Below are positions 6,056 through 57,310 of a DNA stretch of 64,000 nt, piece by piece. The notes under the pieces were generated by a model. It saw nothing but the letters and a program-made list of their open reading frames with translations, was not told the DNA's origin and did not search any database. Each line of letters starts with the position of its first letter. Position 1 is the stretch's first letter. The DNA lies in contig JAFTFD010000339.1 of assembly GCA_017449745.1 (NCBI GenBank), positions 21,866-85,865 of the forward strand, written 5' to 3'. The stretch comes from Lachnospiraceae bacterium. GTDB lineage: Bacteria > Bacillota > Clostridia > Lachnospirales > Lachnospiraceae. The position numbers were made by a program, and so were the translations under genes.

Positions 6056-7837
6056 TTATTTTATTGACCTGTAGAACTTCTGCAGTACAAAGAAGGCGGG
6101 TTTCTTATATTTCTTGTCCGGTGAGAGCAGGCCCTTTCTGTTGTAATACCCTTGGATCATGCTGGTTCGTCTGGGACATCTGAAGTCGTACAGGATCCAC
6201 GGTGTCATTCCCTTTACGTAGGGGATGTCCTTCAGCGTTTCGATCTGTTTTTCAAAAACATAAGTCTGGCAGTCCTCTGTGCCTTTGTCATAGATGGATC
6301 TGCGGTGGCCCGGCATAGCGTCCGCGCCGAACTCCGTCACGATGACCGGCTTGGAAGGATCGCTGTTCTCGAAGAGCTTTGTCAGCATGCCAAAATCCGG
6401 TGTGTACCAGCCCATATACTCGTTGAGGCCGATCACATCCAGATACTCCGCGAGCCTGTCCGCGATTGCCATCTCCTGATAGCTGACAAGGCACGCCGCT
6501 GATACGAGTCTCGTAGAATCCTCACGATGCGCGCACTCCGCGAGATTCTTCATGAATTCAAGTCTTTCGTCTGTGTCGGCATTCTCATTTCCGACGGACC
6601 AGATGATCACGCTGGCGCGGTTCCAGTCTCTGTTGATCAGCTCCAGGAGCTGGTTCTGCGCATCCTGATAGGTCGCCTCTCTGGTGAACCGGATCGCCCA
6701 GTAGACTGGGATCTCCTCCCACAGGAGGATCCCTTCCCTGTCCGCCAGCTGCGCCATCTCCTCGTTATGCGGATAGTGGGCAACACGCATGAAATTGCAT
6801 CCGAGCTCTTTTGCGATCCGGATGTTTTCAAGCCTTTCTTCCGTTGTCAGTCCTTTTCCATTCTCGACACTTTCCTCGTGGCAGCTGATCCCCTTCAGGA
6901 AGATCTGCTTTCCGTTCAGGAGAATATCGCGGCCCTCCACGCGGATCTCACGGAAGCCTACCTTGTCGGTAACTTTATCTTCTCCGCAGATCAGCTCTAC
7001 GTCATAAAGATAAGGATCCTGCGGAGACCAGAGCATGGGGGATGCCTCGATGACTGCCTCTCCCTTGCCCGCGCGGATATCGATCGTGTAATTGATCCCG
7101 AGCTCCGGAATAACAAGGGACGCCTTAGTATCACATTCCTGTGAAAGCGCGGCGCTCACACAGATCTTATCAAATTTCCCGTCTGGCACCAGCGCGATCC
7201 GGAACTGCCTGATAAAGACCTCCGGCACGCGGATCAGCTCGATATCCCTGTAAACACCGCCGTAATTAAACCAGTCCGTGTTTTCCGTCGGAACCTGCTC
7301 GGGGCGGCGGGTGCTGTCTGCCTGGAGGATGATCCTGTTCTCCGCATTGTCTTCCTGAAGGGCATCCGTGATCTCAAAATAAGCCGGGGTAGAGCCGCCT
7401 CTGTGCATGCCCAGATACTGTTTGTTCAAAAATACCCTGCAGATGTAGTTCACGCCGCCGAGTTTCAGAAAGATCCTCTCGCCCGTCGTTTTCTGCATTC
7501 TGAATTTACGCGTAAAAATCATGCTCCCATCGTACAGCAGATACCGCTCGCTCTGCGTGTTCCAGCAGCAGGGCAGCTGCATTGTCGGCCACTCGTCAAA
7601 AGAGTAATCGACCGGGACCGTATAGCCGTTCTTGTCATAGCGGCGCTCCTCGAACCAGTGCTGGCGGATGCAATTGTCATACTGGTCTACCGCGTAATGC
7701 CACAGGCCGTTCAGGGATTCCTTCCTGCGGAACCTGTCATAGAACATGTCTTTGACGGTTGCCTGCCTGGACTCATATTCGCTCAGATAATCTTCGAGGT
7801 TGATATCCGACACATTTTTCTGCTGATACTGTTTCAT
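6056..7837 (-). CDS. uidA: GH2 beta-glucuronidase (copy A)
   Basis: 593 aa with the acid/base motif WSVGNE, the nucleophile motif VTEFG, and an N-x-K-G glucuronate-recognition motif (YNRKG) near the C-terminus. Confidence 0.85.
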
Positions 7838-8625: not shown

Positions 8626-10989
8626 TCAGAGCACTGCTGTGACCTCTTTGTCTCCATCTTTGACTATGATCTTCGCTGCTCCGGGTTTCCCGACGCGGAC
8701 AACGGCCTGCGCCCTGCCATAGTAAGTTTTGAATTTCCCCTCGGTATAGCTCTCCTCGGTGCAGGGGTTTGCGCTTCCGAATCCCAGAAGCTCAGCTCCC
8801 TCTGCCGTGACGGTGAGGGTCCTGTCGTCATTGGATTCTACGATCCCGTTTTCGCCGCGGACCTCAATATCTACATAGACGATCTCGCCCTTGCCGGCCT
8901 TTGTATTCTCAGGCACTGCAGCTACCTGCCTGCTGCCGTTTGCGGAGACAAGGGAGTGTTCGGCGATCTTCTTGCCCTGGGCATCGTAAGAGACTGCTGT
9001 GAGCGTTCCGGGCTGGAAGGATGTCTTGTAAACCGCCTTGTAGTCCTTGAGCTTTTTCTTTCCAAGAGATTTCCCGTTCAGGAACAGTTCCACGCCATCG
9101 CCTTTAGAATAGACCTCGATATAGGCCTTATTGCCCTCGCAGTTTTTCCAGGACCAGCTCTCCATTGCGTTGGTTCCGCGCCACACAGATTTGGAGGGGC
9201 GGACACCGGGATGATTGACAGGTCGGACCCCGATCACCGGATGATCGATCTGGTCCCAGACAACAGCCGCATAGCGGCAGCTGGCGTCCGGAGTGCCGAG
9301 AATGTCAATGACGCCTGCACCTGCAAGCAGCCAGGGGTAAGGGCGGTTAAAAGGAACGCCGCCGGTGTAGCTCCATGCGCCGATCCCGGCTTCTCCCAGA
9401 TAGTCCCAGGAGGTCCACATGAAATCGCCGATGAGATAAGGGTATTTTTTCACCATTTCCCAGTTCTTGCAGATATCCTGCGGGAAGGTCTCGGAGCCGA
9501 CCAGGATCCTGTTCGGATGCGCCGTGCCATCGAGCGGGTAACGGCCCGAACCGTAATTGTATCCGGCAATATCGAGCGCATCACAGAAAGGAGTGGAAAT
9601 GGCGTCTACCTTTTTGGAATTGCCGCCCTTATTCATCCCGGTCCCGATGAAGCTCGCCATGATATTGAAGGCAAGGCTGCCGTTGGAGGCCTTATCTTCC
9701 TTCTGGGGTTTATCGGCGCCGGTATTCTGTTTGCCGTCCTGATAGATCCCGTTCCCCTTTGCCGCGCGTCCGATGATCATCAGGTTGACGCCGCAGGTAA
9801 CAGGGCGGTCCGGATCGAGCTCATGCAGGAGGTCGATCATCTTCTGTCCTGCGATCTGTCCTCTCTCCTCATGCGGCTCCGCCACTTCATTGCCGATCGA
9901 GTACATCAGCACGGAAGGATGATTGAAATCATGCTCTGCCAGCGCCGTAATATCCTCTTTCCAGCACTCTTCAAAGTTGCAGCCGTAGTCATAGGGATTT
10001 TTGCGGTTGTACCACATATCGAACGCCTCGTCCATGACGTACATGCCGTACTCGTCGCAAGCATTCAGCAGCGCTGTGGAGGCGGGGTTATGGGCGATGC
10101 GGACAGCGTTGAAACCGCTCTCTCTTAAAATACGGATCTTCCTTTTTGCGCTCTCGGCAAATTCTGCCGCGCCGAGGATCCCGTTGTCATGATGGATGCA
10201 GCCGCCCCTTAAAAGCGTCTCCTTGCCATTGACGAATAACCCCTTCGGGCTCCATTCAAGTTTTCTGATGCCGAAACGCTCACAGACTTCGTCGAGGATC
10301 TCCCCTCCGCGCTTTAAAACAACATGCGCATCATAGAGCTTTGGCGACTCTTCCGACCAGAGCTGGGCCCCGGGGACAACAAGCTCCAGATCTGCCCCGT
10401 TTCCGGCCGCGATCACTTTCCCGTTATCCAGGATCTCAACAGATACGGAGGTGTTTTGCGCATCTCCTGCAACAGCGGACCTGACTCTGATCTTTGCGGG
10501 GTCGATGCTGAGCGTGTTTATTTTTACTCCCTGCCAGGGCAAATAAGTCTTCTTTGAGACCAGAAGGGAGACAGGCCTGTAAATACCGCCGCCCGTGTAC
10601 CATCTGGAATTCGGCAGTTTTTCATTGTCGGCCACGACGGTGATCGTATTGGTCTCGCCGTACCGGAGCATGCCGTCAAGGTTTACATTAAAAGGTGTAT
10701 AGCCGTAATGGTGCAGCGCGGCCCTGCTGCCGTTTATGCTGACCTGCGCGTCCTTGTAGATACCTTCAAAGAGCAGCTCGACATGGCAGTCCTTCCAGTC
10801 TGCCGGAACCTCGATCTGCTTTTCATATTCGTAGATACCTCCCGGAAAATAGGCGTGTCCGCTGCCGCCCGGTGCGTCTTTGGAGCGGGCCGCGAGGAGC
10901 TGCGCATCGTGCGGGAGAGTGACGCTCTTCCATTCACCGTCCCCCTGTACCTTAAATTTCCAGCTATCGTTGAAGTCGATCTGTTTCAT
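8626..10989 (-). CDS. GH2 family glycoside hydrolase, beta-galactosidase-like (copy A)
   Basis: About 787 aa from the ATG (MKQIDF) that follows an aaggagag RBS. It shows the GH2 N-terminal sugar-binding pattern and the SIGNEV acid/base motif. Confidence 0.88.
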   Translation of the reverse strand: MKQIDFNDSWKFKVQGDGEWKSVTLPHDAQLLAARSKDAPGGSGHAYFPGGIYEYEKQIEVPADWKDCHVELLFEGIYKDAQVSINGSRAALHHYGYTPFNVNLDGMLRYGETNTITVVADNEKLPNSRWYTGGGIYRPVSLLVSKKTYLPWQGVKINTLSIDPAKIRVRSAVAGDAQNTSVSVEILDNGKVIAAGNGADLELVVPGAQLWSEESPKLYDAHVVLKRGGEILDEVCERFGIRKLEWSPKGLFVNGKETLLRGGCIHHDNGILGAAEFAESAKRKIRILRESGFNAVRIAHNPASTALLNACDEYGMYVMDEAFDMWYNRKNPYDYGCNFEECWKEDITALAEHDFNHPSVLMYSIGNEVAEPHEERGQIAGQKMIDLLHELDPDRPVTCGVNLMIIGRAAKGNGIYQDGKQNTGADKPQKEDKASNGSLAFNIMASFIGTGMNKGGNSKKVDAISTPFCDALDIAGYNYGSGRYPLDGTAHPNRILVGSETFPQDICKNWEMVKKYPYLIGDFMWTSWDYLGEAGIGAWSYTGGVPFNRPYPWLLAGAGVIDILGTPDASCRYAAVVWDQIDHPVIGVRPVNHPGVRPSKSVWRGTNAMESWSWKNCEGNKAYIEVYSKGDGVELFLNGKSLGKKKLKDYKAVYKTSFQPGTLTAVSYDAQGKKIAEHSLVSANGSRQVAAVPENTKAGKGEIVYVDIEVRGENGIVESNDDRTLTVTAEGAELLGFGSANPCTEESYTEGKFKTYYGRAQAVVRVGKPGAAKIIVKDGDKEVTAVL

Positions 10990-21438: not shown

Positions 21439-21918
21439 ATGAGCACAGGATTAATCGTGAGTTTAGTCATCCTTGCCGTACTGATCGGCGCCACAGTGGC
21501 ACTGTATTTCGTCGGCAAGAAGATGCAGAAGAGACAGGCGGAACAGCAGGCACAGATCGAGGCGACCAAACAGCCGGTCAAGATGCTGATCATCGACAAG
21601 AAGAGGCTGCCCATCAAGCAGTCAGGACTTCCTCAGCAGGTCATTGATTCGACTCCTTGGTATGCAAAGCGTTCCAAGCTGCCGGTCGTAAAAGCCAAGG
21701 TTGGTCCTCAGATCATGAATCTGATCGCCGATGAACAGATCTTCGATTTCATCCCGGTCAAGAAAGAGGTCCGGGCTATGGTAAGCGGCATCTATATCGT
21801 CGAGGTCAAGGGACTGCACGGACAGAAGCTGGTCAACACCAATCCCAAGAAAAAGAACTGGTTCACCAAGACCATGGACAAGATCCGCGAGAAGGGCGGC
21901 GCCGGTCCCGTCAAGTAA
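21439..21918 (+). CDS. Single-pass membrane protein, YajC-like N-terminus, function unknown (copy A)
   Basis: 159 aa from the ATG after an aggaggg RBS. It has one N-terminal TM helix followed by KKMQKRQAEQQ. Confidence 0.7.
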   Translation: MSTGLIVSLVILAVLIGATVALYFVGKKMQKRQAEQQAQIEATKQPVKMLIIDKKRLPIKQSGLPQQVIDSTPWYAKRSKLPVVKAKVGPQIMNLIADEQIFDFIPVKKEVRAMVSGIYIVEVKGLHGQKLVNTNPKKKNWFTKTMDKIREKGGAGPVK

Positions 21919-21939
21919 GCCGGAAAGTGAATATGAATC

Positions 21940-21971
21940 AAAAAAGAAGCGCACCGGTGCGCTTCTTTTTT
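21940..21971. terminator. Intrinsic-terminator-like hairpin coinciding with the palindrome axis
   Basis: Sequence aaaaaa-gaagcgcacc|ggtgcgcttc-tttttt. A native terminator would read as stem gaagcgca, loop ccgg, stem tgcgcttc, then T6. It lies 21 nt after the stop codon of the 159-aa gene on each arm. Confidence 0.75.
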
Positions 21972-21992
21972 GATTCATATTCACTTTCCGGC

Positions 21993-22472
21993 TTACTTGA
22001 CGGGACCGGCGCCGCCCTTCTCGCGGATCTTGTCCATGGTCTTGGTGAACCAGTTCTTTTTCTTGGGATTGGTGTTGACCAGCTTCTGTCCGTGCAGTCC
22101 CTTGACCTCGACGATATAGATGCCGCTTACCATAGCCCGGACCTCTTTCTTGACCGGGATGAAATCGAAGATCTGTTCATCGGCGATCAGATTCATGATC
22201 TGAGGACCAACCTTGGCTTTTACGACCGGCAGCTTGGAACGCTTTGCATACCAAGGAGTCGAATCAATGACCTGCTGAGGAAGTCCTGACTGCTTGATGG
22301 GCAGCCTCTTCTTGTCGATGATCAGCATCTTGACCGGCTGTTTGGTCGCCTCGATCTGTGCCTGCTGTTCCGCCTGTCTCTTCTGCATCTTCTTGCCGAC
22401 GAAATACAGTGCCACTGTGGCGCCGATCAGTACGGCAAGGATGACTAAACTCACGATTAATCCTGTGCTCAT
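21993..22472 (-). CDS. Single-pass membrane protein, YajC-like N-terminus (copy B)
   Basis: Mirror of 21439..21918 with identical translation. Confidence 0.7.
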   Translation of the reverse strand: MSTGLIVSLVILAVLIGATVALYFVGKKMQKRQAEQQAQIEATKQPVKMLIIDKKRLPIKQSGLPQQVIDSTPWYAKRSKLPVVKAKVGPQIMNLIADEQIFDFIPVKKEVRAMVSGIYIVEVKGLHGQKLVNTNPKKKNWFTKTMDKIREKGGAGPVK

Positions 22473-23832: not shown

Positions 23833-25236
23833 ATGAAAAAACAGTATGAGATGGTAGAAGTGGCTGCTATTTTTGCGCAGCCGGAAGCTTTTTTTGACAA
23901 GACAGTCACTGTCGGCGGCTGGGTCCGCAACAACAGGGATTCCAAGAACGTGGGCTTTATCGTGCTGTCCGACGGCAGCACCTTCGCAACGCTTCAGCTG
24001 GTCTATTCAGCGGATATGGAAGGATTCGAGCGCGTCGCAAAGCTCAACGTCGGCGCCGCTGTGATCGCGACCGGCAAGATCGTTGCTACTCCCAATGCCA
24101 AGCAGCCCTTTGAGATGCAGGTGGAAAAAGTGGAAGTCGAGGGAGATTCCTCCGCAGACTATCCGCTGCAGAAAAAGCGCCACAGCTTTGAGTATCTGCG
24201 CACGATCCCGCATCTGCGTGTCCGCACCAATACCTTTATGGCGGTCATGCGTGTCCGCTCCCTGATCGCGTTTGCGATCCACCAGTTCTTCCAGGAGAGA
24301 GGCTTTGTTTATGTCCATGCGCCTGAGATCACAGGATCCGACGCAGAGGGCGCAGGCGAGATGTTCCAGGTGACAACGCTGGATCTCGAGAACCTCCCCC
24401 GTACAGAGGACGGCAAAGTCGACTATTCCCAGGATTTCTTCGGAAAGCCCACCAACCTGACTGTCAGCGGCCAGCTGGATGTCGAGACCTATGCATTTGC
24501 GTTCCGCAATGTGTATACCTTTGGCCCTACTTTCCGCGCTGAGAAGTCTAACACTACAAGACATGCGGCAGAGTTCTGGATGATCGAGCCCGAGATCTGT
24601 TTTGCGGATCTTGAGGACGACATGGAGCTTGCGGAGGATATGCTCAAATACATCATCCGCTACGTGCTTGAGAAAGCGCCGGAAGAGATGGCTTTCTTCA
24701 ACCAGTTCATTGACAAGGGACTGCTGGAGAGACTCAATCATGTCGCTTCCTCCGATTTCGGCCGCATCACATATACAGAGGCGGTAGAGATCCTCAAAGA
24801 GCACAACGATGAGTTTGAGAACAAGGTCTTCTGGGGATGCGATCTGCAGACAGAGCATGAGCGCTTCCTTACAGAGAAACAGTTCAAGCGCCCTGTTTTC
24901 GTGACAGATTATCCGAAGGAGATCAAGGCCTTCTATATGAAGCTGAATCCGGACGGAAAGACCGTCGCAGCCTGCGACTGCCTGGTTCCGGGCATCGGTG
25001 AGATCATCGGCGGCAGCCAGAGAGAGGATGATCTCGCGCTTCTGGAGCAGAGAATGGACGAACTCGGAATGGACAAGAGCCAGTATGATTTCTATCTGGA
25101 TCTTCGCAGATACGGATCTGTCCGCCACGCCGGATTCGGCCTTGGTTTTGAGAGGTGCGTTATGTATCTGACCGGCATGGAGAACATCCGTGACGTGCTG
25201 CCTTTCCCGAGAACAGTCGGTAACTGTGAGCTTTGA
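23833..25236 (+). CDS. asnS: Asparagine--tRNA ligase (copy B)
   Basis: Mirror of 18675..20078 with identical translation. Confidence 0.95.
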
Positions 25237-26644: not shown

Positions 26645-26749
26645 TAAGAAATACCGGGTAGGGGAGACTCTGCCCGGTTATTTTTAATGGCAAACAACTG
26701 CATCAGCAAATACAAACAGAAAATCAAATACACTCAAGGAGAAAAGCCG

Positions 26750-28291
26750 ATGGAGAAAATAATAGTGCTTGATTTCGGCGGTCAGTACAAGCAGCTGATC
26801 GCAAGAAGAGTGAGAGAGGAACACGTCTACTGTGAGATCTTTCCCCATACGACGCCGATCGAAGAGATCCGGAAAATGGGGCCGAAGGGAATCATCCTGA
26901 CAGGCGGGCCGGACAGCGTTTACAGAGAGAATTCGCCGTCCTGCGATCCGGAGCTGTTTGCCCTGGGAATTCCCGTTCTCGGGATCTGCTATGGCTCACA
27001 GCTGATGGCCTATCTTCTCGGAGGAGAAGTCAAGACAGCACCTGTCAGCGAGTATGGAAAAACGGAGATCACGGTCGATGCTGAAAAAGAATCAGGGATC
27101 CTGGGAAACTGGGAGACGCAGACGACCTGCTGGATGAGCCATACGGATTACATCGCGTCTGTCCCGGCGGGCTTCCATGTGACAGCATATTCCGGTCACT
27201 GCCCGGTCGCGGCTATGGAAGATCCGATGCGCCGCCTTTACGCGGTGCAGTTCCATCCTGAGGTTGTGCACACGCCCGAAGGAAAAAAGCTCTTCCATAA
27301 TTTTGTCTATGATATCTGCGGCTGCAGTGGAGATTGGAAGATGTCCTCCTTTGTGGAGACTACCATTCAGCAGCTGAGGGAGAAGATCGGCGACGGGAAA
27401 GTGCTGTGTGCCCTTTCCGGCGGCGTGGACTCCTCTGTAGCGGCTGTCCTTCTCTCCAAGGCAGTCGGGCGCCAGCTGACCTGTGTATTTGTGGACCACG
27501 GTCTTCTCAGGAAAAATGAGGGAGATGAGGTAGAAGCGGTTTTCGGACCGGAAGGAAACTATGACCTGAATTTCATCCGCGTAAACGCACAGGATCACTT
27601 TTATAAAAAACTGGCAGGTGTTGCGGAACCGGAAATGAAACGCAGGATCATAGGCGCCGAGTTTATCGAGGTCTTCGAGAAGGAGGCAAAAAAGATCGGC
27701 GCAGTGGATTATCTCGTGCAGGGAACGATCTACCCGGACGTCGTCGAGAGCGGTATCGGGACCGGTGCTGTGATCAAATCGCATCATAATGTCGGCGGCC
27801 TTCCGGACCATGTCGATTTCAAAGAGATTATTGAGCCTCTCCGCCAGCTTTTTAAGGACGAAGTCCGCGAGGTCGGCTTAGAGCTCGGGATCCCGGAACA
27901 CCTTGTCTACCGCCAGCCGTTCCCGGGACCGGGGCTTGGCATCCGCATCGTCGGCGATGTCACAGAGGATAAGGTCAGGATCGTACAGGAGGCGGACGCG
28001 ATCTACCGCGAGGAACTCAAAAAAGCTGGCGTCGACCTGGGACTTGGTCAGTTCTTTGCGGCGCTCTCCAATATGCGCTCTGTCGGCGTTATGGGAGACG
28101 GCAGGACCTATGACTATGCCGTCGTCCTCAGGGCAGTCCTCACCAGCGACTTCATGACAGCGGAAGCAGCCGAGCTCCCCTGGAGCGTCCTGCAGACCTG
28201 CATGAACCGCATCATCAACGAAGTCAAAGGCGTAAACCGCGTCCTGTACGACCTCACCAGTAAACCGCCCGGGACTATAGAACTTGAGTGA
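26750..28291 (+). CDS. guaA: GMP synthase (glutamine-hydrolysing), full length (copy B)
   Basis: Mirror of 15620..17161 with identical translation. Confidence 0.95.
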
Positions 28292-28340
28292 TAACAAGGA
28301 ATGCATCACTGGAATTGTCAGCCGTGCAGCGGCTGTTGAG

Positions 28341-28397
28341 AAAAAAGAAAGGGTCCCTGACCATGCTTGCATGGAAAGGGACCCTTTCTTTTTTCTC
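28341..28397. terminator. Bidirectional intrinsic terminator after guaA (copy B)
   Basis: Sequence aaaaaagaaagggtccct - loop - agggaccctttcttttttc, lying between convergent genes. Confidence 0.85.
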
Positions 28398-28601
28398 AAA
28401 TCACTGACCGAAGGTTGGGAACAATTCCAGAAAGATATACTCCGCCAACAAACAGCGAGCCGTCAGGCGAGCTGCTTTTCTTATTCTCGTAGATCCTGCC
28501 GGAGGCTGGATCCGCTTCTTCTTATGATTGAATATACTCCGCCAACAGACAGCGAGCTGCCTCCCATCCTCTTCGATCCTGCCGTCAGGCACCCTGCCTC
28601 A

Positions 28602-41682: not shown

Positions 41683-41707
41683 TCTGAACCCGGCCCAGAC
41701 CTGATTT

Positions 41708-41807
41708 GAATTCGGATAGCATCTGAATACAGATAAATGAGAATTCGGATATCATCTGAGTACAGATATCAATTGAATACAGATATCATCTGAATGCTGA
41801 TTGGGTC
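41708..41807. repeat. Three degenerate ~33-bp tandem units between the pckA stop and its terminator (mirror copy at 2104..2203)
   Basis: The units start at about 41708, 41741 and 41775 and begin gaattcggata(g/t)catctga(a/g)tacagata. The motif atcatctga recurs with a 33-nt period. Confidence 0.75.
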
Positions 41808-41831
41808 ATCGCAGAATAATGCAAGATGCAA

Positions 41832-41862
41832 AGTGCCGCACCGTGAGGTGCGGCACTTTTTT
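41832..41862 (+). terminator. Intrinsic terminator downstream of pckA (copy B)
   Basis: Sequence agtgccgcacc-gtga-ggtgcggcact followed by tttttt. Confidence 0.8.
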
Positions 41863-42125
41863 GGCTGCGGTTCTTGATTTTGTTTTCATGTTTGGTTTAA
41901 AATGAGCAATATCTGAGCCGGAGATTCGGTCCAGATGCCATATCTTTTTCGGCTATTTCGTTGTTTGTCTTTTCTTGTTTGTATAACTTAACTAATGTTT
42001 TGTGTATTTCTTGTTTCCTATTCCTGCTTGTGTTTCTTGTTTCCTACAACTAGCCTGCACTTCTTATTCATCCACTACATTACAAAATTCTGATTCGTAT
42101 CCCCGTTTATAGCGTTTATTCTGAA

Positions 42126-42217
42126 CTTCCTGCAGTCTAATACTTTCATTTTAAACTCCCTGCAGTCAAATACCTCTCATTTTAAACTATCAGGTTTCTA
42201 ATACCTTTCATTTCAGA
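42126..42217. repeat. Three tandem ~31-bp degenerate repeats in the ORF-free low-GC region (mirror copy at 1694..1785)
   Basis: The three units are cttcctgcagtctaatactttcattttaaa, ctccctgcagtcaaatacctctcattttaaa and ctatcaggtttctaatacctttcatttcaga. Confidence 0.75.
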
Positions 42218-43024
42218 CTCTAATTCTTTCTGCCATACTCTGAAATCAAGTGGTCATACAGCTATTCACAACATAATTGGCGAATATCGTTGCAACAGGT
42301 TGTGCACATAAATTGGCATTTTTACAGCGCGCGACAAAGACCACGGATTTCCCGCATTCAGATGTGTGGAAAACTGACCATTTCAAGACTCTCGCAACAA
42401 ATATCAAAGAAATGATGGGACATAGAGGTAAATTCAAAACCTCGGATTTTTTGTTGTCACAACAAAGAAAAGAAGGAATGGGATAAATGACCGCGAGGAA
42501 AAAAGTCCTAAGCAACATTTTATAACAGGACTACCTGTTTGCACGTGACCGCTTTTTTTCGGACTTTACTATTCACAACAAAAGAGAACGAATAAAAACA
42601 TTTGGAGGTACAGCTGATGAAATGGCTGTTTTATCGCACAACAAATATATTTAGTATATCCACTAATAACCGTGGGCACTGCGCACACACAAATATCCCG
42701 CACAACAGAAGAGTGCTCAATTTAAGCAAATGCCCGTATAGGGCTTATCTTCCCACTGGAATGCAAAAAGAAAGAGCGATAGTTTGCGGGAACATAAGCG
42801 GTGTCCCGCCATAAAATGCCTATCTAACGAGAAACTTGTAGAACAAAAGGTAATCAAACCATGCGAGGATTTATTGAAAAGGAGTTCAATTTGTTGAGAG
42901 ACCAATATAAAGCAAGCCAATCTGATGAGAGGCCAATATTAAGAAAGACCAATCATGATATGAGAACATTATAAAGAAAGGAACGACAAAACCATATTCA
43001 TCAATACAAAGGAGAAATAGTAAA

Positions 43025-43813
43025 TTGCCATCTATCTATGAGTCATTACTTAATCGGAAGGCTTCACTCGAGTTGTTGATCCGTGAGAAGGAAAGAGCAT
43101 TGAGTAAGGCACCGGAAGGCACTCTGCATATCAGAAGCCACGGGAGTTATGTTCAATACTACATCAGCACAGAACAGCAGAAAGATAAGTATCTGTTGCG
43201 GAAGCAGGATGTGTTCGCCAAATCTCTGGCGCAAAAGAAATACGACGAGAGAATACTTAATTCTGCTAAGAAAGAGCTGAAAGCTATTGACGGGTTGCAG
43301 AGAAGAATCCCGGAAATAATGGTGGAAGATGTTTATACAAACTTATCTAAAGACCGGCAAAAGCTGGTTACGCCTATAGTGTTACCTGATAAGGAATTCG
43401 CAGATCAGTGGCAGAATGTTCCATATGAAAGAAAAAAATTCATGGAGGATTCACCGGAGTTCTTCACTGCCAAAGGGGAACGTGTCAGGTCAAAGTCTGA
43501 AATACTCATCGCAGATATGTTGAATAAACTGCACATTCCTTATCGATATGAGTATCCATTAGATCTAAAAGGGATCGGAACGATATATCCTGATTTTACT
43601 ATGCTGAACGTGAAATTGAGAAAAGAGGTCTATCTTGAACATCTTGGTATGATGGATGACCCGGTCTATCTGGAGAATGCTCTGCAGCGGATCAGTATTT
43701 ATGAGCAAAATGGAATATTTCCGGGAGACAGGTTGATCTTGCTTCATGAGACTTCAACGCATCCCCTGAATATCAGGGCTGCAGAAAGAGCAATCCGGTA
43801 TTACATCAATTAG
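43025..43813 (+). CDS. Hypothetical 262-aa protein with a C-terminal restriction-endonuclease-fold-like signature (copy B)
   Basis: Mirror of 98..886. Confidence 0.7.
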   Translation: MPSIYESLLNRKASLELLIREKERALSKAPEGTLHIRSHGSYVQYYISTEQQKDKYLLRKQDVFAKSLAQKKYDERILNSAKKELKAIDGLQRRIPEIMVEDVYTNLSKDRQKLVTPIVLPDKEFADQWQNVPYERKKFMEDSPEFFTAKGERVRSKSEILIADMLNKLHIPYRYEYPLDLKGIGTIYPDFTMLNVKLRKEVYLEHLGMMDDPVYLENALQRISIYEQNGIFPGDRLILLHETSTHPLNIRAAERAIRYYIN

Positions 43814-43895
43814 GACAATGCAATTAACAATGGAAGCACTGTTGAAATTCCACGAACTAAAACTAAAAAAGGGTTAATCCAAGAAAGGAACGAAA

Positions 43896-44453
43896 ATGAA
43901 TTACAATTACTTTAAAAACTATATTATTGATAAAGCACAGATGATCGGCGAGGATATTAGTTATTATGAAACAGCGGAAACAGAACCGGAAGTAGTGACT
44001 GAAACGGCATCGGATATGCTTTCCCATATACTTGAATTTACTATTCATTCAAGCGACGTATATAGTCCGGCCATCAGTACAACTGTGCGTATAGATCTTG
44101 TTGAATTGTTTCAGGATCTGCAATATGAAAAAAATGATCAGATCGTCAGAAAGATCGATGCATTGTTTAATTCAATGGAAACAACAGGATGTAAACTTGG
44201 AACGGAAGCATATATTAAAAGGTTGAGCGGGGTTGAACTGGAACGATATAATGCGCTCAAAGAACTAAGAGCTGAGATAGCAGAAAAAGAAGGCGTGCGT
44301 CTATACATGATCTTCGATAACAGGACACTTGCGGAGATGAGCCGCCTGAAACCTGAATCGAAAGCAGCAATGCAGACTATCCATGGAGTTGGAGCCGTAA
44401 AGATGGCAAAATACGGAGAACAGTTTTTTGACCTTCTCAGGGAATTGGCATAA
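43896..44453 (+). CDS. HRDC domain-containing protein
   Basis: 185 aa. The C-terminal ~70 aa match the HRDC pattern (LERYNALKELRAEIAEKEGVRLYMIFDNRTLAEMSRLKPESKAAMQTIHGVGAVKMAKYGEQF). I did not recognise the N-terminal ~110 aa. Its first 15 nt lie inside the palindrome and are mirrored at 1..15. Confidence 0.8.
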   Translation: MNYNYFKNYIIDKAQMIGEDISYYETAETEPEVVTETASDMLSHILEFTIHSSDVYSPAISTTVRIDLVELFQDLQYEKNDQIVRKIDALFNSMETTGCKLGTEAYIKRLSGVELERYNALKELRAEIAEKEGVRLYMIFDNRTLAEMSRLKPESKAAMQTIHGVGAVKMAKYGEQFFDLLRELA

Positions 44454-45517: not shown

Positions 45518-45536
45518 GAAGCTGCAGGAAACATCC

Positions 45537-45683
45537 CTGCAGGCATTGCTGGCAGACGCTTCCAGATTAGTTTATTCCTGCAGGCATTGCTGGCAGACGC
45601 TTCCAGATTAGTTTATTCCTGCAGGCATTGCGAACAGACGCTTCCAGATTAGTTTATCCCTGCAAGCATTACCGGACAGGCAG
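45537..45683. repeat. 41-bp tandem direct repeat, 3 full copies plus a partial fourth
   Basis: The unit ctgcaggcattgctggcagacgcttccagattagtttattc starts at 45537, 45578, 45619 and 45660. Copies 1-2 are identical and copies 3-4 are progressively diverged. Confidence 0.9.
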
Positions 45684-51090: not shown

Positions 51091-52080
51091 ATGGCAGAAA
51101 TCAGAAGACCTGACAACATGGAAAGAATTACGACCCCTGCCCTGGCGCAGGCATTCATTGAGGAGCAGATCACAGAGCTCCGCGCACAGATCGGTGACAA
51201 CAAGGTCCTGCTGGCACTGTCCGGCGGCGTAGACTCTTCTGTAGTTGCTGCACTGCTCATCAAGGCAGTCGGCAAGCAGCTGATCTCCGTGCACGTCAAC
51301 CACGGACTGCTTCGCAAAGGCGAGCCTGAGCAGGTTATTAAGGTATTCCGCGATGAGATGAATGCCAACCTGATCTATGTGGACGCTGTGGACCGCTTCC
51401 TCGACAAGCTGGCCGGCGTTTCCGATCCGGAGACAAAGAGACACATCATCGGTGAGGAGTTTATCGATGTATTCGCGGAAGAAGCCAGAAAGCTCGATGG
51501 CGTGAAATTCCTGGCACAGGGTACGATCTGGCCGGATATCCTTGAGAGCGAGGCAGGCATTAAGGCACACCACAATGCTGGCGGTCTTCCCGAGGACATC
51601 GCATCCCGCTTTGAGCTTGTAGAGCCGGTCAAGATCCTCTTCAAGGACGAGGTCCGTCTCGTAGGTAAAGAGCTCGGTCTTCCTGACAACATGGTCTTCC
51701 GTCAGCCGTTTCCCGGCCCGGGACTCGGCGTACGCTGCCCCGGCGCGATCACACGCGACAGACTCGAAGCAGTCCGTGAGTCCGATGCGATCCTGCGCGA
51801 GGAATTTGCAAAGAACGGCCTTGAGGGCAAGGTATGGCAGTACTTCACAGTTGTTCCGGACTTTAAGTCCACCGGTGTCAAGAACGGCAAACGTACCTTT
51901 GACTGGCCATGCATCATCCGTGCGATCAACACCACGGATGTCATGGAAGTTACTGTTGAGCACCTTCCGGACGAGCTGATCGATCACCTCGTTAAGAGGA
52001 TCATCACAGAGGTTCCCGGGATCAACCGCGTGCTCTATGACTTCACTCCCAAGCCGCCCGCAACGGTCGAATACGAATAA
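51091..52080 (+). CDS. Stand-alone GMP synthase ATP-pyrophosphatase (PP-loop plus dimerisation) domain protein, no glutaminase domain
   Basis: 329 aa with the PP-loop [10 protein letters not shown]. It is collinear with the C-terminal ~320 aa of the full-length GuaA in this window and ends KPPATVEYE. RBS is gaaggag. Confidence 0.88.
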   Translation: MAEIRRPDNMERITTPALAQAFIEEQITELRAQIGDNKVLLALSGGVDSSVVAALLIKAVGKQLISVHVNHGLLRKGEPEQVIKVFRDEMNANLIYVDAVDRFLDKLAGVSDPETKRHIIGEEFIDVFAEEARKLDGVKFLAQGTIWPDILESEAGIKAHHNAGGLPEDIASRFELVEPVKILFKDEVRLVGKELGLPDNMVFRQPFPGPGLGVRCPGAITRDRLEAVRESDAILREEFAKNGLEGKVWQYFTVVPDFKSTGVKNGKRTFDWPCIIRAINTTDVMEVTVEHLPDELIDHLVKRIITEVPGINRVLYDFTPKPPATVEYE

Positions 52081-52586: not shown

Positions 52587-52607
52587 AAATTCAGGAGAGT
52601 GTTGACT

Positions 52608-52970
52608 ATGGGTGATATTGAACTTGGGAACGTGCAGGAACGGTTCGCGGATATTGTATGGAAGTATGAGCCTGTCGGTTCGGGAGAGCTGGTAAAGCTT
52701 TGTGAAAAGGAGCTGCACTGGAAAAAACCAACGACTTACACCGTGCTGCGAAAGCTGTGTGAGAAGGGCCTGCTTCAGAATGTGAACGGAATTGTGACCT
52801 CACGAATTTCGCGTGATGATTTCTACGCTTCCAAAAGCGAACAGATCATTGAAGAGTCATATCAGGGATCTCTCCCTGCTTTTGTAGCAGCATTCACTTC
52901 AAGGAAAAAGCTCTCAGCTAAGGAGGCTGAGGAGATCCAGAGGCTGATCGATTCTTTCAAAAAGGGGTAA
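52608..52970 (+). CDS. BlaI/MecI/CopY-family transcriptional repressor
   Basis: 120 aa from the ATG after an aggagag RBS. It has a winged-helix N-terminus (TTYTVLRKLCEKGLL) and a C-terminal dimerisation helix. Confidence 0.88.
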   Translation: MGDIELGNVQERFADIVWKYEPVGSGELVKLCEKELHWKKPTTYTVLRKLCEKGLLQNVNGIVTSRISRDDFYASKSEQIIEESYQGSLPAFVAAFTSRKKLSAKEAEEIQRLIDSFKKG

Positions 52971-52972
52971 GT

Positions 52973-55270
52973 ATGAGTGCTATATTCCTCAAAATATTGA
53001 ATATGAGTATTACAGCCAGCTGGCTTATCCTTGCTGTGATCGCTGCGCGGCAGCTTCTCAGGACGGCACCTAAGTGGACAGTCTGCCTGCTCTGGGGAAT
53101 GGTTGCGCTTAGGCTGATCTGTCCATTCTCTATGGAAAGCACATTCAGCCTGATCCCGAGTACGGAGACGATTCCGTCCGGGATCGCTGATCAGAACAGG
53201 CCCTCTGTTAATACGGGGATCACCCTTGTAAACGATATGGTCAATCCTGCGATATCGGCATCCTTTACCCCGAATCCCGGGGACAGCGTGAGTCCTCTTC
53301 AGATCATCATACCAATCGCAGCAGCTGTATGGATCACGGGAATGATCCTGATGCTTGCATATGCGCTGATCAGTTACCTGAAGCTGAAGAGAAGTGTCAT
53401 GGCATGTATGCCTGTCGGAGAAGATGTATTTGCCTGTGATGAGATAAATACCCCATTCATTCTGGGAGTTTTCAGGCCGTTGATCTATGTGCCTTCTTTC
53501 ATGGATGGTGATACATTAAGCTTCGTACTCCGGCACGAAAGGGCACATCTTCAGCGCCATGATCATTGGTGGAAGCCATTCGGATATTTGCTTCTGGCTG
53601 TTCACTGGTTTAATCCACTATGTTGGATCGCATATATCCTTCTTTGCAAGGATATAGAAATGGCATGCGATGAGAAAGTGATCCGCGACATGGACAAGGA
53701 TGCCATGGCAGCATATAGTCAGGCAATTCTTGACTGCAGCTTTTCCAGAAAACGCATCGCTGCATGCCCTCTGGCCTTCGGTGAAGTCGGGGTGAAGGAG
53801 CGGGTGAAAGGCGTGTTAAATTACAGGAGACCTACTTTCTGGATTATTTTGATCGCCGGTATAGTATGCATTGCTTTAGCTCTATGCCTTATGACAGACC
53901 CGTTATCAAAAGAGCTTGGCAAGACTCCTGCTGAGGGCGAATCATCTGGGCGGTTTTATCTGACGATCGGTGCAAAGGGTGTGAAAAGCATCGATGTAGT
54001 AACGCCTCATTCAAGCGGAGGCTGTCAGAATGCGGATGGTTCATTGTTTAAGGAAGGCGAAACCTTCTGGCTTGAACCACTGGACGGGGTTCAGGATCTA
54101 TGCGGTGTGACCATCACAGCTTTAGATGAAAACGGAGCTGTGATCTGGACAGCATCCATTCCCGACAATGAGGAAAACAAAGGCTTTACTCATTTGATAC
54201 AGGATGGATGGGAAGTCACGAGCTTCGCCGACCTGGAGACAGATATGCTGCCGTCCGGGACACAGGACGAAATGTTTGTCAGTTTTGCGGGCGAAGATTA
54301 TACGGAAATCCGATGGCAGGGGAGAACCTATGTGCCATATTGCCCTGTGGATAATCGCGACCGCGGCGCGAAGCTGGGTCATGTAGGCGAGGATGAAAAC
54401 GATGAAATCTATGAGTACAGGGATTATTCCGCGGCGGAATGGCTGATTTCGTTTTACCATTCCGGGCTGATGGACAGCTCCATGCTGATGCGGGAAGTGA
54501 ATGTAACTAAGATCCCGGAAGGATTGTCTTCCGAATACTGGTGGAATGAGCCCGGTCTTCTGGTTCCATACGAACAGACACAGGACGGACAGTGGGAGGC
54601 GCGTGGGAAACAGTACAGGTATTGCCTCACCCTGCGGGGCAGGGGGAATAATGCAGCCAGGGAAAGTGAATTTACGGTACTGTCGAATGAGCAGAATATT
54701 ACCTTTGAAGAAGTGTTAGAAAGTCTGTTTTCCAGCCAGCGTTACACTGTATTTGACTATAAAGACGCCATCCTGGTGCGGATTGGAACTTTGGAGGAGG
54801 ATGAAACGAACGCGCCTGGGGTATCAGAAACACCGAAAGAGGAAGACAACGGGCAAAACGCTTCCGCAGTTACGCAGGAGTGGCGCTGGCCTCTGGAAAA
54901 AACACATGAGGTCGGTGATTATTATGGAATCAGGGTCCATCCGCTGACCGGTGAAGAACGTATGCATGACCATGTAAATCTCAGAGCGGAAGAGGAAGAG
55001 TGGGTTGTGGCTGCAATCGGAGGAAAGATAAAAGACATACAGTATGACCCGCAGATGGGCAATACAGTCATCGTTGATGCCGGTGACGGAATAGAAACCG
55101 AGTATGGGCATCTCTCCAAAGTCGGAGTATCAGAAATTGGCGGGACGATCCATGCCGGTGATGTGATTGGAATGGCCGGCAAAACAGGAACGGCAACAGG
55201 AACCAATCTTTCTTTCAAGGTAATTGTAAATGGGAGTCCTGTAGATCCTATGCAGTTTATTGGTGATTAG
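52973..55270 (+). CDS. BlaR1/MecR1-like M56 peptidase signal transducer with C-terminal degenerate LytM (M23) domain
   Basis: 765 aa with N-terminal TM helices and the HExxH motif (RHERAHLQRHD). Residues ~310-630 are unrecognised. The C-terminal M23-like block (YGHLSK ... GKTGTATGTNLSFKV ... VDP) has HxxxD changed to HDHVN and HxH changed to NLS. Confidence 0.82.
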   Translation: MSAIFLKILNMSITASWLILAVIAARQLLRTAPKWTVCLLWGMVALRLICPFSMESTFSLIPSTETIPSGIADQNRPSVNTGITLVNDMVNPAISASFTPNPGDSVSPLQIIIPIAAAVWITGMILMLAYALISYLKLKRSVMACMPVGEDVFACDEINTPFILGVFRPLIYVPSFMDGDTLSFVLRHERAHLQRHDHWWKPFGYLLLAVHWFNPLCWIAYILLCKDIEMACDEKVIRDMDKDAMAAYSQAILDCSFSRKRIAACPLAFGEVGVKERVKGVLNYRRPTFWIILIAGIVCIALALCLMTDPLSKELGKTPAEGESSGRFYLTIGAKGVKSIDVVTPHSSGGCQNADGSLFKEGETFWLEPLDGVQDLCGVTITALDENGAVIWTASIPDNEENKGFTHLIQDGWEVTSFADLETDMLPSGTQDEMFVSFAGEDYTEIRWQGRTYVPYCPVDNRDRGAKLGHVGEDENDEIYEYRDYSAAEWLISFYHSGLMDSSMLMREVNVTKIPEGLSSEYWWNEPGLLVPYEQTQDGQWEARGKQYRYCLTLRGRGNNAARESEFTVLSNEQNITFEEVLESLFSSQRYTVFDYKDAILVRIGTLEEDETNAPGVSETPKEEDNGQNASAVTQEWRWPLEKTHEVGDYYGIRVHPLTGEERMHDHVNLRAEEEEWVVAAIGGKIKDIQYDPQMGNTVIVDAGDGIETEYGHLSKVGVSEIGGTIHAGDVIGMAGKTGTATGTNLSFKVIVNGSPVDPMQFIGD

Positions 55271-55362
55271 GGAACAGGGCTCAGTAAAAAAGTTGATTGT
55301 TCGTGTGCATTCAGAGGGGAGAAAAGCTGTATGAACAGCGGACTCACAGAGTCCGAACGCAG

Positions 55363-55397
55363 GGGGTACGGGGATTTTATCCTGTACCCCGGTTTTT
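55363..55397 (+). terminator. Intrinsic terminator after the blaR1-like gene
   Basis: Sequence ggggtacgggg-atttta-tcctgtacccc followed by ggttttt. Confidence 0.7.
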
Positions 55398-55514
55398 ACG
55401 TTCGAAATGTCCACGACAAGGATTCGGATGAAGATTCATTTGTAACCTTTCACCCTGTTCATCTGTATTATTATTGAAAGGCCTTTTAGTAACAATGTAA
55501 GGAACCATATATTT

Positions 55515-55997
55515 ATGCGATTAGATTTTAATGTGATTGCCGAGGAATACAGGGATAATCTCTTCGCCGCAGCTTTCCATATCTGTGAGAACGCGGCGGA
55601 TGCGGATGATGTTGTCCAGGAGACGCTTCTCAAATATCACCGGTCAACAAAAGAATTTGATAATGAAGAGCATCTTAAGGCCTGGCTTCTGCGCGTCACA
55701 GTCAATCAAGCAAAAAACGTGCGCAGATCTTTCTGGAGACACAGGATCGTACCGATTGAAGACTACATGGAGACGTTGTGCTTTGATTCACCGGAATCGG
55801 AGACTTTATTTCTGGAAGTGATGCAGTTGCCGGAGAAATACAGGATCGTGATTCATCTGTTCTATTATGAGGACTATTCGGTAAATGAGATCAGTCAGGT
55901 GCTAAGGATCAGCGAAAGTAATGCAAAGGTACGGTTAAGCCGCGCCAGAAAGATGCTCAAGGAAAGATTACGGGAGGAGTGGAGTGAGGATGAATAA
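55515..55997 (+). CDS. ECF-type RNA polymerase sigma-70 family factor (module 1)
   Basis: 160 aa with region 2 (DADDVVQETLLKY ... WLLRVTVNQAKN) and region 4 (YEDYSVNEISQVLRISESNAKVRLSRARKML). Confidence 0.88.
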   Translation: MRLDFNVIAEEYRDNLFAAAFHICENAADADDVVQETLLKYHRSTKEFDNEEHLKAWLLRVTVNQAKNVRRSFWRHRIVPIEDYMETLCFDSPESETLFLEVMQLPEKYRIVIHLFYYEDYSVNEISQVLRISESNAKVRLSRARKMLKERLREEWSEDE

Positions 55998-56589
55998 CCG
56001 AGAAAAATACAAACAGGCATTTTCTGTTCTGCATGCCTCCGATACTACAAAGATGGAGGTGAAAACAGTGGAATTATCTAAATACTCTATGATGCGCAGA
56101 ATTACCGCAGCGTGTGCCGGATTGATACTGGTCTTAGGAACAGGTATGGTGGTTTATGCGTATGGGGGACATATCGTCCGTCAGATTTTCGGATGGGGAA
56201 ACAACATGACGATCACTAATACAATTGATCCAGAGACCGGAGAAAACAAGAATGAAGTGATGGTCATGACTGACTCACTGACAAAGCCGATTATTGTTGA
56301 AGACGATAGGATAATATTCGTTGTAAATGGCGAGCATATCGATATTACAGATCAAATGTCCGAAACGGAGCCGTATTCCTATGAATATGAGGATGAGGAA
56401 GGCTACAAGCACTACTGGTTCGTTGGGATTAATAATGCTGAAAAGGGGGAATACGGATTCGGTGAATACATCATGGATACAAATGGCGAGTGGGCGGGAG
56501 GTTACTCAGCTTGGACTAATCTGGATGAGAATGGAGATGGCCCAGAGTGGTTGGAGATTGGAAAGGACAAGATAGGTTGTCCGTGGTAA
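55990..56589 (+). CDS. Putative anti-sigma factor / membrane protein (module 1)
   Basis: Its ATG overlaps the sigma stop codon (ATGAATAA). It has a short cytoplasmic N-terminus, one TM helix (ITAACAGLILVLGTGMVVYAY), and a ~130-aa extracytoplasmic domain. Confidence 0.65.
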   Translation: MNNREKYKQAFSVLHASDTTKMEVKTVELSKYSMMRRITAACAGLILVLGTGMVVYAYGGHIVRQIFGWGNNMTITNTIDPETGENKNEVMVMTDSLTKPIIVEDDRIIFVVNGEHIDITDQMSETEPYSYEYEDEEGYKHYWFVGINNAEKGEYGFGEYIMDTNGEWAGGYSAWTNLDENGDGPEWLEIGKDKIGCPW

Positions 56590-56644
56590 TGTGCTGGAGA
56601 AATGTTTTGATTACTGAATACAGCATATGATATAAGAATCAGAG

Positions 56645-56673
56645 AACCGGCGGCATTTGCTGCCGGTTTTTTT
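56645..56673 (+). terminator. Intrinsic terminator after module 1
   Basis: Sequence aaccggcggca-tt-tgctgccggtt followed by ttttt. Confidence 0.75.
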
Positions 56674-56683
56674 GAAAAACGAA

Positions 56684-56708
56684 TGAACCGATCGGAACAA
56701 ATCCGTCT
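56684..56708 (+). promoter_or_regulatory. Candidate ECF-type promoter upstream of the second sigma factor
   Basis: TGAAC (56684-88), a 15-nt spacer, then CGTCT (56704-08). This resembles the GAAC-N15/16-CGTC architecture of autoregulated ECF promoters. Confidence 0.4.
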
Positions 56709-56752
56709 CTAAATATACAGATGCATCTGAAAGAAACATGAAGGAGACGCCG

Positions 56753-57310
56753 ATGGATGAGCAATATCTCGTCAGAAGAATGAAGAATGGTGACCGGTCC
56801 GCTTTTGACAGCATTTACGAAAAATACCATATACCAATACTGCGCTCGGCCTATTTGATCTGTGGGAACAGACAGGATGCGGAAGACGTTATGCAGGATA
56901 CATTTGTTGCCTGCTGGCTCCATGTCAGGGAACTCAGAAAGGATGAGAGCTTCCGGTACTGGCTTTTTCGGATCATGGCACAGGCCGCGAGAAAAACAGC
57001 AAAGGAACATGCCGCTCTTGTGCCGGATGAAATGATCCAGGACACGGCAGACAGGGGTCAGCTGCAGCAGCTGGTCAGTGATGAGTATGAGAGAGTATTA
57101 GATGGATACTTCGTAGAGAATGCCTTGCAGGCATTATCTAAGCAGCAGAGGGAAGTGATCGTTCTCTACTACTACAATGAGATGTCTGTGAAGGAGATTG
57201 CAAATACACTGCAGGTCTTCGAAGGTACAGTTAAGAGCAGATTATTCACGGCGAGGCGGCAGATGAAATCGGCACTGCAGCGTCTTAAGAAGGAGAGAGA
57301 AAATGCGTGA
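56753..57310 (+). CDS. ECF-type RNA polymerase sigma-70 family factor (module 2)
   Basis: About 185 aa from the ATG after an aaggag RBS. It has region 2 (RQDAEDVMQDTFVACW) and region 4 (YYYNEMSVKEIANTLQVFEGTVKSRLFTARRQM). Confidence 0.88.
   Translation: MDEQYLVRRMKNGDRSAFDSIYEKYHIPILRSAYLICGNRQDAEDVMQDTFVACWLHVRELRKDESFRYWLFRIMAQAARKTAKEHAALVPDEMIQDTADRGQLQQLVSDEYERVLDGYFVENALQALSKQQREVIVLYYYNEMSVKEIANTLQVFEGTVKSRLFTARRQMKSALQRLKKERENA

Follow-up and report, generated by a model that had tools for sequence, protein, structure and literature searches.

Perfect palindromic contig ends are obtained when an assembler reads round a hairpin telomere, and palindrome formation seeded by short inverted repeats is established in bacteria, ciliates, yeast and mammalian cells. 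Palindromes are processed by nucleases of the SbcCD type, and in bacteria a perfect palindrome that lacks a spacer and has arms of 42 kb or more would be extremely unstable or lethal.

Palindromes can also be created by the assembly graph itself. A k-mer with a palindromic (k-1)-suffix creates an inverted loop, and where this loop is the sole exit, the maximal unitig in the doubled graph is palindromic (Rahman and Medvedev, 2022; PMC9528984). In the assembler tests of that study, SPAdes and MEGAHIT spelled such palindromes in full, ABySS split them and minia gave mixed results. Whole-contig palindromes in SPAdes isolate assemblies (81 cases) were ascribed to assembly error (PMC9455707), and palindromic contigs are described in SAG assemblies (bioRxiv 10.1101/2023.06.06.543983). 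In the literature on MEGAHIT-specific palindromic contigs or "inverted duplication" assembly artefacts we found nothing beyond PMC9528984. In addition, palindromic inverted chimeras are pervasive in amplified long-read data (Pacasus, PMC6218980 / bioRxiv 10.1101/173872; PMC13265396). Chimeras formed during MDA are mostly inverted with an intervening deletion, more than 70% of the junctions use 2–21 nt of complementarity, and neither self-priming on hairpins nor template switching proved to be a major route to them (Lasken and Stockwell, 2007; PMC1855051). Hairpins of single-stranded DNA, combined with end repair, give rise to inverted-repeat chimeric fragments (FFPE/end-repair, PMC8458033), and ligation-based nanopore libraries yield inverted-repeat chimeric reads (PMC13141652).

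The stretch of DNA analysed here (the window, 64,000 nt) opens with a perfect palindrome that occupies positions 1–43910. Mirror-base pairing showed that all 21,955 positions of the left arm (1–21955) are complementary to their mirror positions in the right arm (21956–43910), with 0 mismatches (21,955/21,955). The axis lies at 21955|21956, inside the CCGG loop of a hairpin. The whole axis element, A6-GAAGCGCA-CCGG-TGCGCTTC-T6 (21940–21971), is a 32-nt perfect palindrome with an 8-bp GC-rich stem. The earlier note had set the axis at this point within the hairpin, and both the sequence and the mirror pairing agree with its coordinates and description. The fold-back junction is located somewhere within 21940–21971, with 21955|21956 as its formal axis; inspection of the sequence at the axis revealed no extra base and no adapter remnant. 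In the remaining ~42 kb of unique sequence the longest other perfect palindrome measures only 16 nt, which argues that the placement of the junction is non-random. For a junction placed at random, the probability of hitting the centre of a 32-nt palindrome is ~1 in 40,000.

The visible palindrome ends only where the start of the window cuts the left arm. From 43911 to 64000 (+) the same chromosome continues away from the axis, and the mirror of this part would lie upstream of the window. Its genes encode an HRDC protein, malQ, MoxR/DUF58, a BlaI/BlaR1-like pair, ECF sigma factors and an MFS transporter. The 185-aa ORF with the HRDC domain (43896–44453) straddles the visible palindrome end, which is a window cut only. 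Near the same end there is a low-GC (0.39) stretch at 41700–44000, mirrored at ~1–2200, which holds a 262-aa ORF without annotation (43025–43813).

Gene content of the window is that of an ordinary housekeeping chromosome. It includes genes for a trigger-factor-like PPIase lipoprotein, a class II aaRS (Asn/Asp type), an NlpC/P60 hydrolase, GuaA, an AraC regulator, two GH2 enzymes, an Fe-ADH, PEPCK and MalQ. No tRNAs were found in the window, and none of the about 40 window ORFs scanned against Pfam was phage-, plasmid- or resolvase-like. For the ORFs covered, the same scan agrees with the remark in the earlier note that the window holds no telomere resolvase. Several further features were recorded along the way. 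Besides the full-length guaA (26687–28291), there is a second GuaA-like ORF at 51091–52080 (+), which has the ATP-pyrophosphatase and GMP_synt_C parts without the glutamine amidotransferase domain. Directly after guaA, at ~28336–28399, lies a long inverted repeat with arms of ~21–23 nt, presumably another terminator; since it is imperfect and has a loop, it is no inverted-loop site. At 52599–57310 a BlaI-type repressor adjoins a BlaR1 (M56) sensor that carries a fused M23 peptidase domain, and two ECF-type sigma factors come next. GC content drops to 0.43–0.48 across ~52–60 kb, and this low-GC region is possibly an acquired island. Finally, a 41-nt tandem repeat of ~3.5 copies (87–100% identical) occupies the intergenic region between a GDSL-lipase-like ORF and malQ (45533–45675).

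The gene that ends at the axis element encodes, according to its translation, a 159-aa single-pass membrane protein (21439–21918, +), and its mirrored duplicate lies in the right arm (21993–22472, −). The protein has one N-terminal hydrophobic helix, and no Pfam family was matched in a Pfam scan. Its TAA stop codon (21916–21918) is located 21 nt before the hairpin element. The stem of 8 bp contains five GC pairs, or 14 pairs in total when the A/T tracts are counted, and the T-run comprises 6–7 residues. In its native context the RNA folds with ~−21 kcal/mol (z = −2.5 to −3) and was classed as terminator-like. The features of an intrinsic terminator are all present, namely a GC-rich stem, a 4-nt loop, a T-run that follows directly and a stop codon nearby. 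Orthologues of the 159-aa protein occur in Lachnospiraceae MAGs; the nearest genomes belong to uncultured rumen/gut Lachnospiraceae, with at most 70% amino-acid identity in this protein. In related species a strong hairpin with a T-run follows the orthologous gene at five of the seven related loci examined (L011–L015), and at several related loci A and T tracts flank the hairpin too. To judge from its sequence, the axis element is a genuine, ordinary bidirectional Rho-independent terminator. That the hairpin terminates the gene of the 159-aa membrane protein had already been proposed; the terminator-like call, the fold, the native contigs described below and the hairpins in relatives all speak for it.

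The exact 159-aa protein is recorded in 20 contigs from independent metagenomes, and 10 of these were fetched as a native comparison set (L001–L010, with L001 and L002 being 20-kb loci). As far as the terminator's far edge, all of them are collinear with the right arm at 99.0–100% identity, with 0–1 gap openings per 10.5 kb. The alignments begin at window position 32471 for L001 and L002, where the fetched loci start, and every one of the ten stops at 21940–21942, i.e., at the far edge of the 32-nt element. The hairpin is carried by 10/10 contigs. One contig, L004, has exactly AAAAAAGAAGCGCACCGGTGCGCTTCTTTTTT (6519–6550), followed by unrelated TCTGCGG...; beyond the palindrome it reads TCTGCGGTTTTAAGTAAG..., and the window reads GATTCATATTC.... 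In L004 the palindrome is flanked by C and T and is therefore exactly 32 nt long, and the native 33-mer made of the palindrome plus T is AAAAAAGAAGCGCACCGGTGCGCTTCTTTTTTT.

The claim of the earlier note that the 32-nt palindrome pre-exists in single-copy DNA is thus borne out by the exact copy in L004, which is followed by unique sequence. The reasoning that led to a pre-existing hairpin was circular as far as the window went, and its conclusion is true by way of the native contigs. Alone, the window shows only A6 and a GC-rich 10-mer preceding the axis, which is insufficient for a pre-existing terminator because the right half of any fold-back copies the left half. We also considered the terminator as an illusion made by the fold-back itself and rejected this, as native contigs carry the hairpin.

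Past the terminator, L001–L003, L005–L007 and L004/L009 continue. In L001–L003 the native continuation extends over 6–10 kb and contains convergent genes for a GHMP kinase, pyrD, pyrK, the plsC acyltransferase and the pyrC dihydroorotase; L001 and L002 reach further, to a Mur ligase, ddl and aconitase. When the native contigs were aligned to the window, this downstream DNA was absent from it. The normal arrangement through the terminator is present in seven independent assemblies (L001–L003, L005–L007, L004). Because conspecific assemblies read through the terminator into ordinary genes, we conclude, with a probability of about 0.9, that the giant palindrome is an assembly or library artefact seeded by a native palindromic terminator, and not biology or a structure of the genome. 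A 26-mer of the locus, GTGAATATGAATCAAAAAAGAAGCGC, gave no exact match in GTDB representative genomes, JGI metagenomes or IMG/VR, and no exact record was found for the PEPCK protein of the window.

The exit from the terminator is strain-variable in the native contigs. The first 40 nt downstream fall into five haplotypes among eight contigs, with a mean identity of 74%, vs. 99.3% for the 100 nt upstream of the exit. The spacer between the terminator and the GHMP kinase gene is hypervariable over 40–300 nt downstream (e.g., L001 10534–10850; L004 6551–6607) and also carries indels of ~66 and ~230 nt, with the flanking genes 99–100% identical. Of the 10 public contigs, four have their end no more than 92 nt from the terminator. 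In L002 (~10530–10600) the hairpin is directly followed by a stretch of N and a second copy of the terminator's right half (TGCGCTTCTTTTTTTCTGC). Here an independent data set seems to show another assembly defect, of a different kind, at this site. In L001 (4181–5722) the guaA gene is split into two ORF calls (173 and 332 aa), while it is intact in L002, L004 and the window; the split is probably a frameshift error or a strain pseudogene.

As the most likely route to this contig, at about even odds, we regard a purely computational, graph-level inverted loop. The 159-aa gene ends in an ordinary bidirectional Rho-independent terminator, of which the CCGG-loop allele forms a perfect 32-nt palindrome. 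On the real chromosome the terminator is followed by the strain-variable spacer and then by the convergent GHMP-kinase/pyrD/pyrK cluster. In a de Bruijn graph with k≤33, a k-mer ending in the palindrome joins its own reverse complement as an inverted loop. Were the native exit branch missing or pruned, the sole continuation of matching coverage would be the reverse complement of the incoming path. Such pruning is plausible, given the several strain haplotypes in the first 40 nt downstream; to judge from this variable exit, each native branch would be individually weak and prone to pruning in a sample of mixed strains. Assemblers that work on a doubled graph or by "push-through", e.g., SPAdes and MEGAHIT, would then spell X-palindrome-revcomp(X), and multi-k assemblers may carry a fold-back contig from a low k into later rounds.

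Counts of k-mers agree with such a loop. For k≤33, every k-mer of the junction already occurs in native L004; a single novel one appears at k=34, and at k=55 there are 22. The shortest junction string that is absent from the native genome is a self-complementary 34-mer, C+palindrome+G (CAAAAAAGAAGCGCACCGGTGCGCTTCTTTTTTG, 21939–21972). We then built a toy doubled de Bruijn graph, for which the only input was native L004, truncated at the palindrome end. At k=21, 31 and 33 it gave a palindromic unitig that passes the palindrome and returns along its own reverse complement, and a comparison of the unitigs for k=31 and 33 with the window showed no difference before the first strain SNP at 24258. 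With k=35 or 55 the unitig goes no further than the palindrome. Once the native branch is added, the unitig for k=31 breaks off after 30 nt of the palindrome. Of the two Logan contigs (k=31), L010 ends 30 nt and L008 31 nt into it. The palindrome demonstrably behaves as an inverted loop in real assemblies.

The loop allele matters as well. Of the 10 contigs, six carry GCGG, L002 a further variant and three CCGG; only CCGG makes a perfect palindrome, and this is the allele of the window. All three CCGG contigs end within 89 nt after the palindrome start, vs. one of the seven with imperfect alleles (Fisher p=0.033; 10 contigs in all), and the other six of these seven continue for 712 nt or more, counted from the palindrome start. 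What defines an inverted loop, a native exact palindrome of at least k-1 (the 32 nt suffice for odd k≤33) and identical arms, was found here. The palindrome is native and has a native continuation, a graph of low k is enough to produce the fold-back, and public contigs built at k=31 are interrupted here.

The contig itself restricts how such a route could have run. The tandem repeat at 45533–45675 holds an exact repeated 55-mer, and therefore the assembly route is constrained and the contig is not a plain k≤55 unitig. A plain low-k unitig was accordingly rejected, as the exact repeated 55-mer requires a multi-k, read-threading or long-read assembler. Since the contig crosses this 55-mer, a fold-back that arose at low k would need an assembler with multi-k rounds or read threading to carry it forward. 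Further points count against the graph route. If a single strain were well covered, k≥35 should suffice to resolve the 32-nt palindrome from the reads that span it, and every feature also fits a long-read assembly seeded by one physical fold-back read. We infer that the graph, rather than a physical chimeric molecule, made this contig with a confidence that is evenly balanced.

A strong rival is the reading preferred in the earlier note, a physical fold-back in vitro, which we hold possible, with the odds somewhat against it. A 3′ end or single-stranded tail would snap back on the 8-bp stem, or a strand-displacing polymerase would switch to the displaced strand there, and the product would be extended. 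Perhaps this took place during MDA/phi29 amplification or during end repair of the library, and one or a few such reads then misled a long-read or hybrid assembler; as with the step before it, we lean against this setting without dismissing it. The junction sits exactly at a native inverted repeat and is non-random, the join is inverted and at a short complementary sequence, and the contig runs through a tandem repeat that is not resolvable in graphs of low k; all of this suits a physical molecule. However, the intervening deletion typical of MDA is missing, the join being exactly symmetric with no base lost, and arms of at least 42 kb would still require extension by an assembler. Snap-back would be equally possible on the commoner GCGG allele, leaving an imperfect centre, yet the allele in the window is exactly the one on which the graph route depends (likelihood ratio roughly 3 against the in vitro reading). 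Moreover, there are no indels of the long-read type relative to Illumina contigs (0–1 gap openings per 10.5 kb). The earlier note had read the junction at a hairpin as the signature of polymerase fold-back or template switching. What stands of this is that the junction is non-random and lies at a native inverted repeat; it is not a specific signature, since a graph fold-back fits equally, and somewhat better, without any chimeric molecule (PMC9528984). Nor does self-priming on the hairpin or template switching hold as the favoured route, given that it is not a major source of MDA chimeras (PMC1855051) and that the usual deletion is missing here. The computational fold-back in the graph is a route that this reading overlooked.

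The other explanations have far less in their favour. Routes beyond those listed here are, taken together, improbable. That a break or stalled fork near the terminator led to intrastrand snap-back and, upon replication, to a palindromic duplication in part of the population is very improbable, although the junction position fits. The product, a symmetric tandem-inversion-duplication intermediate or a palindromic amplicon, is just as hard to credit, and so is its reading as a real molecule, in which a strain subpopulation would carry a giant palindromic duplication or amplicon after in vivo snap-back at the palindromic terminator allele. Without a spacer, and with arms of at least 42 kb, such a palindrome should not persist in a bacterium as a stable structure. 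It would also cut the housekeeping genes off from the convergent pyr/mur/ddl cluster, which comes next in every native contig of sufficient length (L001–L003); its arms show no divergence, no second junction is visible, and the seven independent assemblies are normal through the terminator. Fold-back at a random fragment end, in which the terminator would be accidental, draws on a missed SMRTbell adapter, nanopore read-through from template to complement, or blunt ligation, all of them common palindromic sources in long-read data (for ligation-based nanopore libraries, PMC13141652). Here, though, the 16 nt beyond the axis are native, the axis has no adapter remnant or extra base, and in ~42 kb no other perfect palindrome exceeds 16 nt, so that the junction would have hit this one by a coincidence of ~1 in 40,000. 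We find this reading barely credible and rejected it on the position statistics; the view in the earlier note that the junction argues against random end-to-end ligation agrees with the palindrome-length statistic, by which such a ligation is very unlikely. Least credible is a hairpin telomere, with the axis as the covalently closed tip of a linear replicon and an assembler that read round it. Conspecific contigs with 99–100% identity run past the terminator, up to ~10 kb as fetched, into unique chromosomal genes. Moreover, the window carries housekeeping genes (trigger-factor-like PPIase, AsnS/AspS, GuaA, PEPCK), with no plasmid-, phage- or resolvase-like ORF among the about 40 scanned, and the would-be tip is an ordinary terminator whose position is conserved in related species. 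The telomere was rejected on the native read-through and on the lack of resolvase, plasmid or phage content among the window ORFs scanned. The earlier note had also disfavoured it and had named joins of the terminator to other unique DNA as evidence against it; the conspecific contigs contain such joins.

With an artefact as the preferred reading, the case is chiefly of use for quality control. A duplicated mirror image accounts for at least 21,955 bp of the window, and the mirror image probably makes up half of a contig of at least 84 kb. The fold-back doubles gene counts and falsely truncates the locus. It also makes false ORFs over the axis: a mirror-image pair of 120-aa ORFs at 21622–21984 (−) and 21927–22289 (+) spans it, owed solely to the fold-back, and both are spurious gene calls. 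The contig is best cut at 21955 and one arm dropped. As a general rule, bidirectional terminators in which A-tract, stem, self-complementary loop and T-tract together form an exact palindrome of at least k-1 are predictable break or fold-back sites for graph assemblers, and the one-base loop polymorphism, CCGG vs. GCGG, turns this effect on or off. Unless reads prove the molecule, there is no biological novelty; if the in vivo molecule were real, terminators with self-complementary loops would be natural hotspots of palindrome formation in gut Firmicutes.

Compared with known systems, the element at the axis resembles bidirectional Rho-independent terminators between convergent genes in its A-tract, GC-rich 8-bp stem, 4-nt loop and T-tract, in its position 21 nt past a stop codon and in the convergent cluster that lies downstream in the native locus. 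Its sole peculiarity is the CCGG-loop allele, with which the element is an exact palindrome over its full length. Hairpin telomeres that protelomerases resolve (Borrelia ResT, phage N15 TelN, Agrobacterium TelA) share with it that read-round assemblies are perfect palindromes centred on the tip; in contrast to them, native DNA here continues past the tip, the context is chromosomal and the tip is a terminator. Like the inverted chimeras of MDA and library preparation, the contig has an inverted join at short complementarity with both segments from one locus, but it is perfectly symmetric, without a deletion, and the complementarity extends over 32 nt vs. the 2–21 nt reported. With the palindromic unitigs made by inverted loops (PMC9528984) it has in common an exact native palindrome of at least k-1 at the axis and identical arms; furthermore, its junction consists entirely of native k-mers for k≤33, and other k=31 assemblies split at the same place. 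It differs from the published inverted-loop and whole-contig palindromes in the length of its arms (at least 42 kb) and in crossing a repeat that needs k>55 or read threading. The carry-over from a low k that is needed here is treated in PMC9528984, PMC9455707 and bioRxiv 10.1101/2023.06.06.543983 only in general terms.
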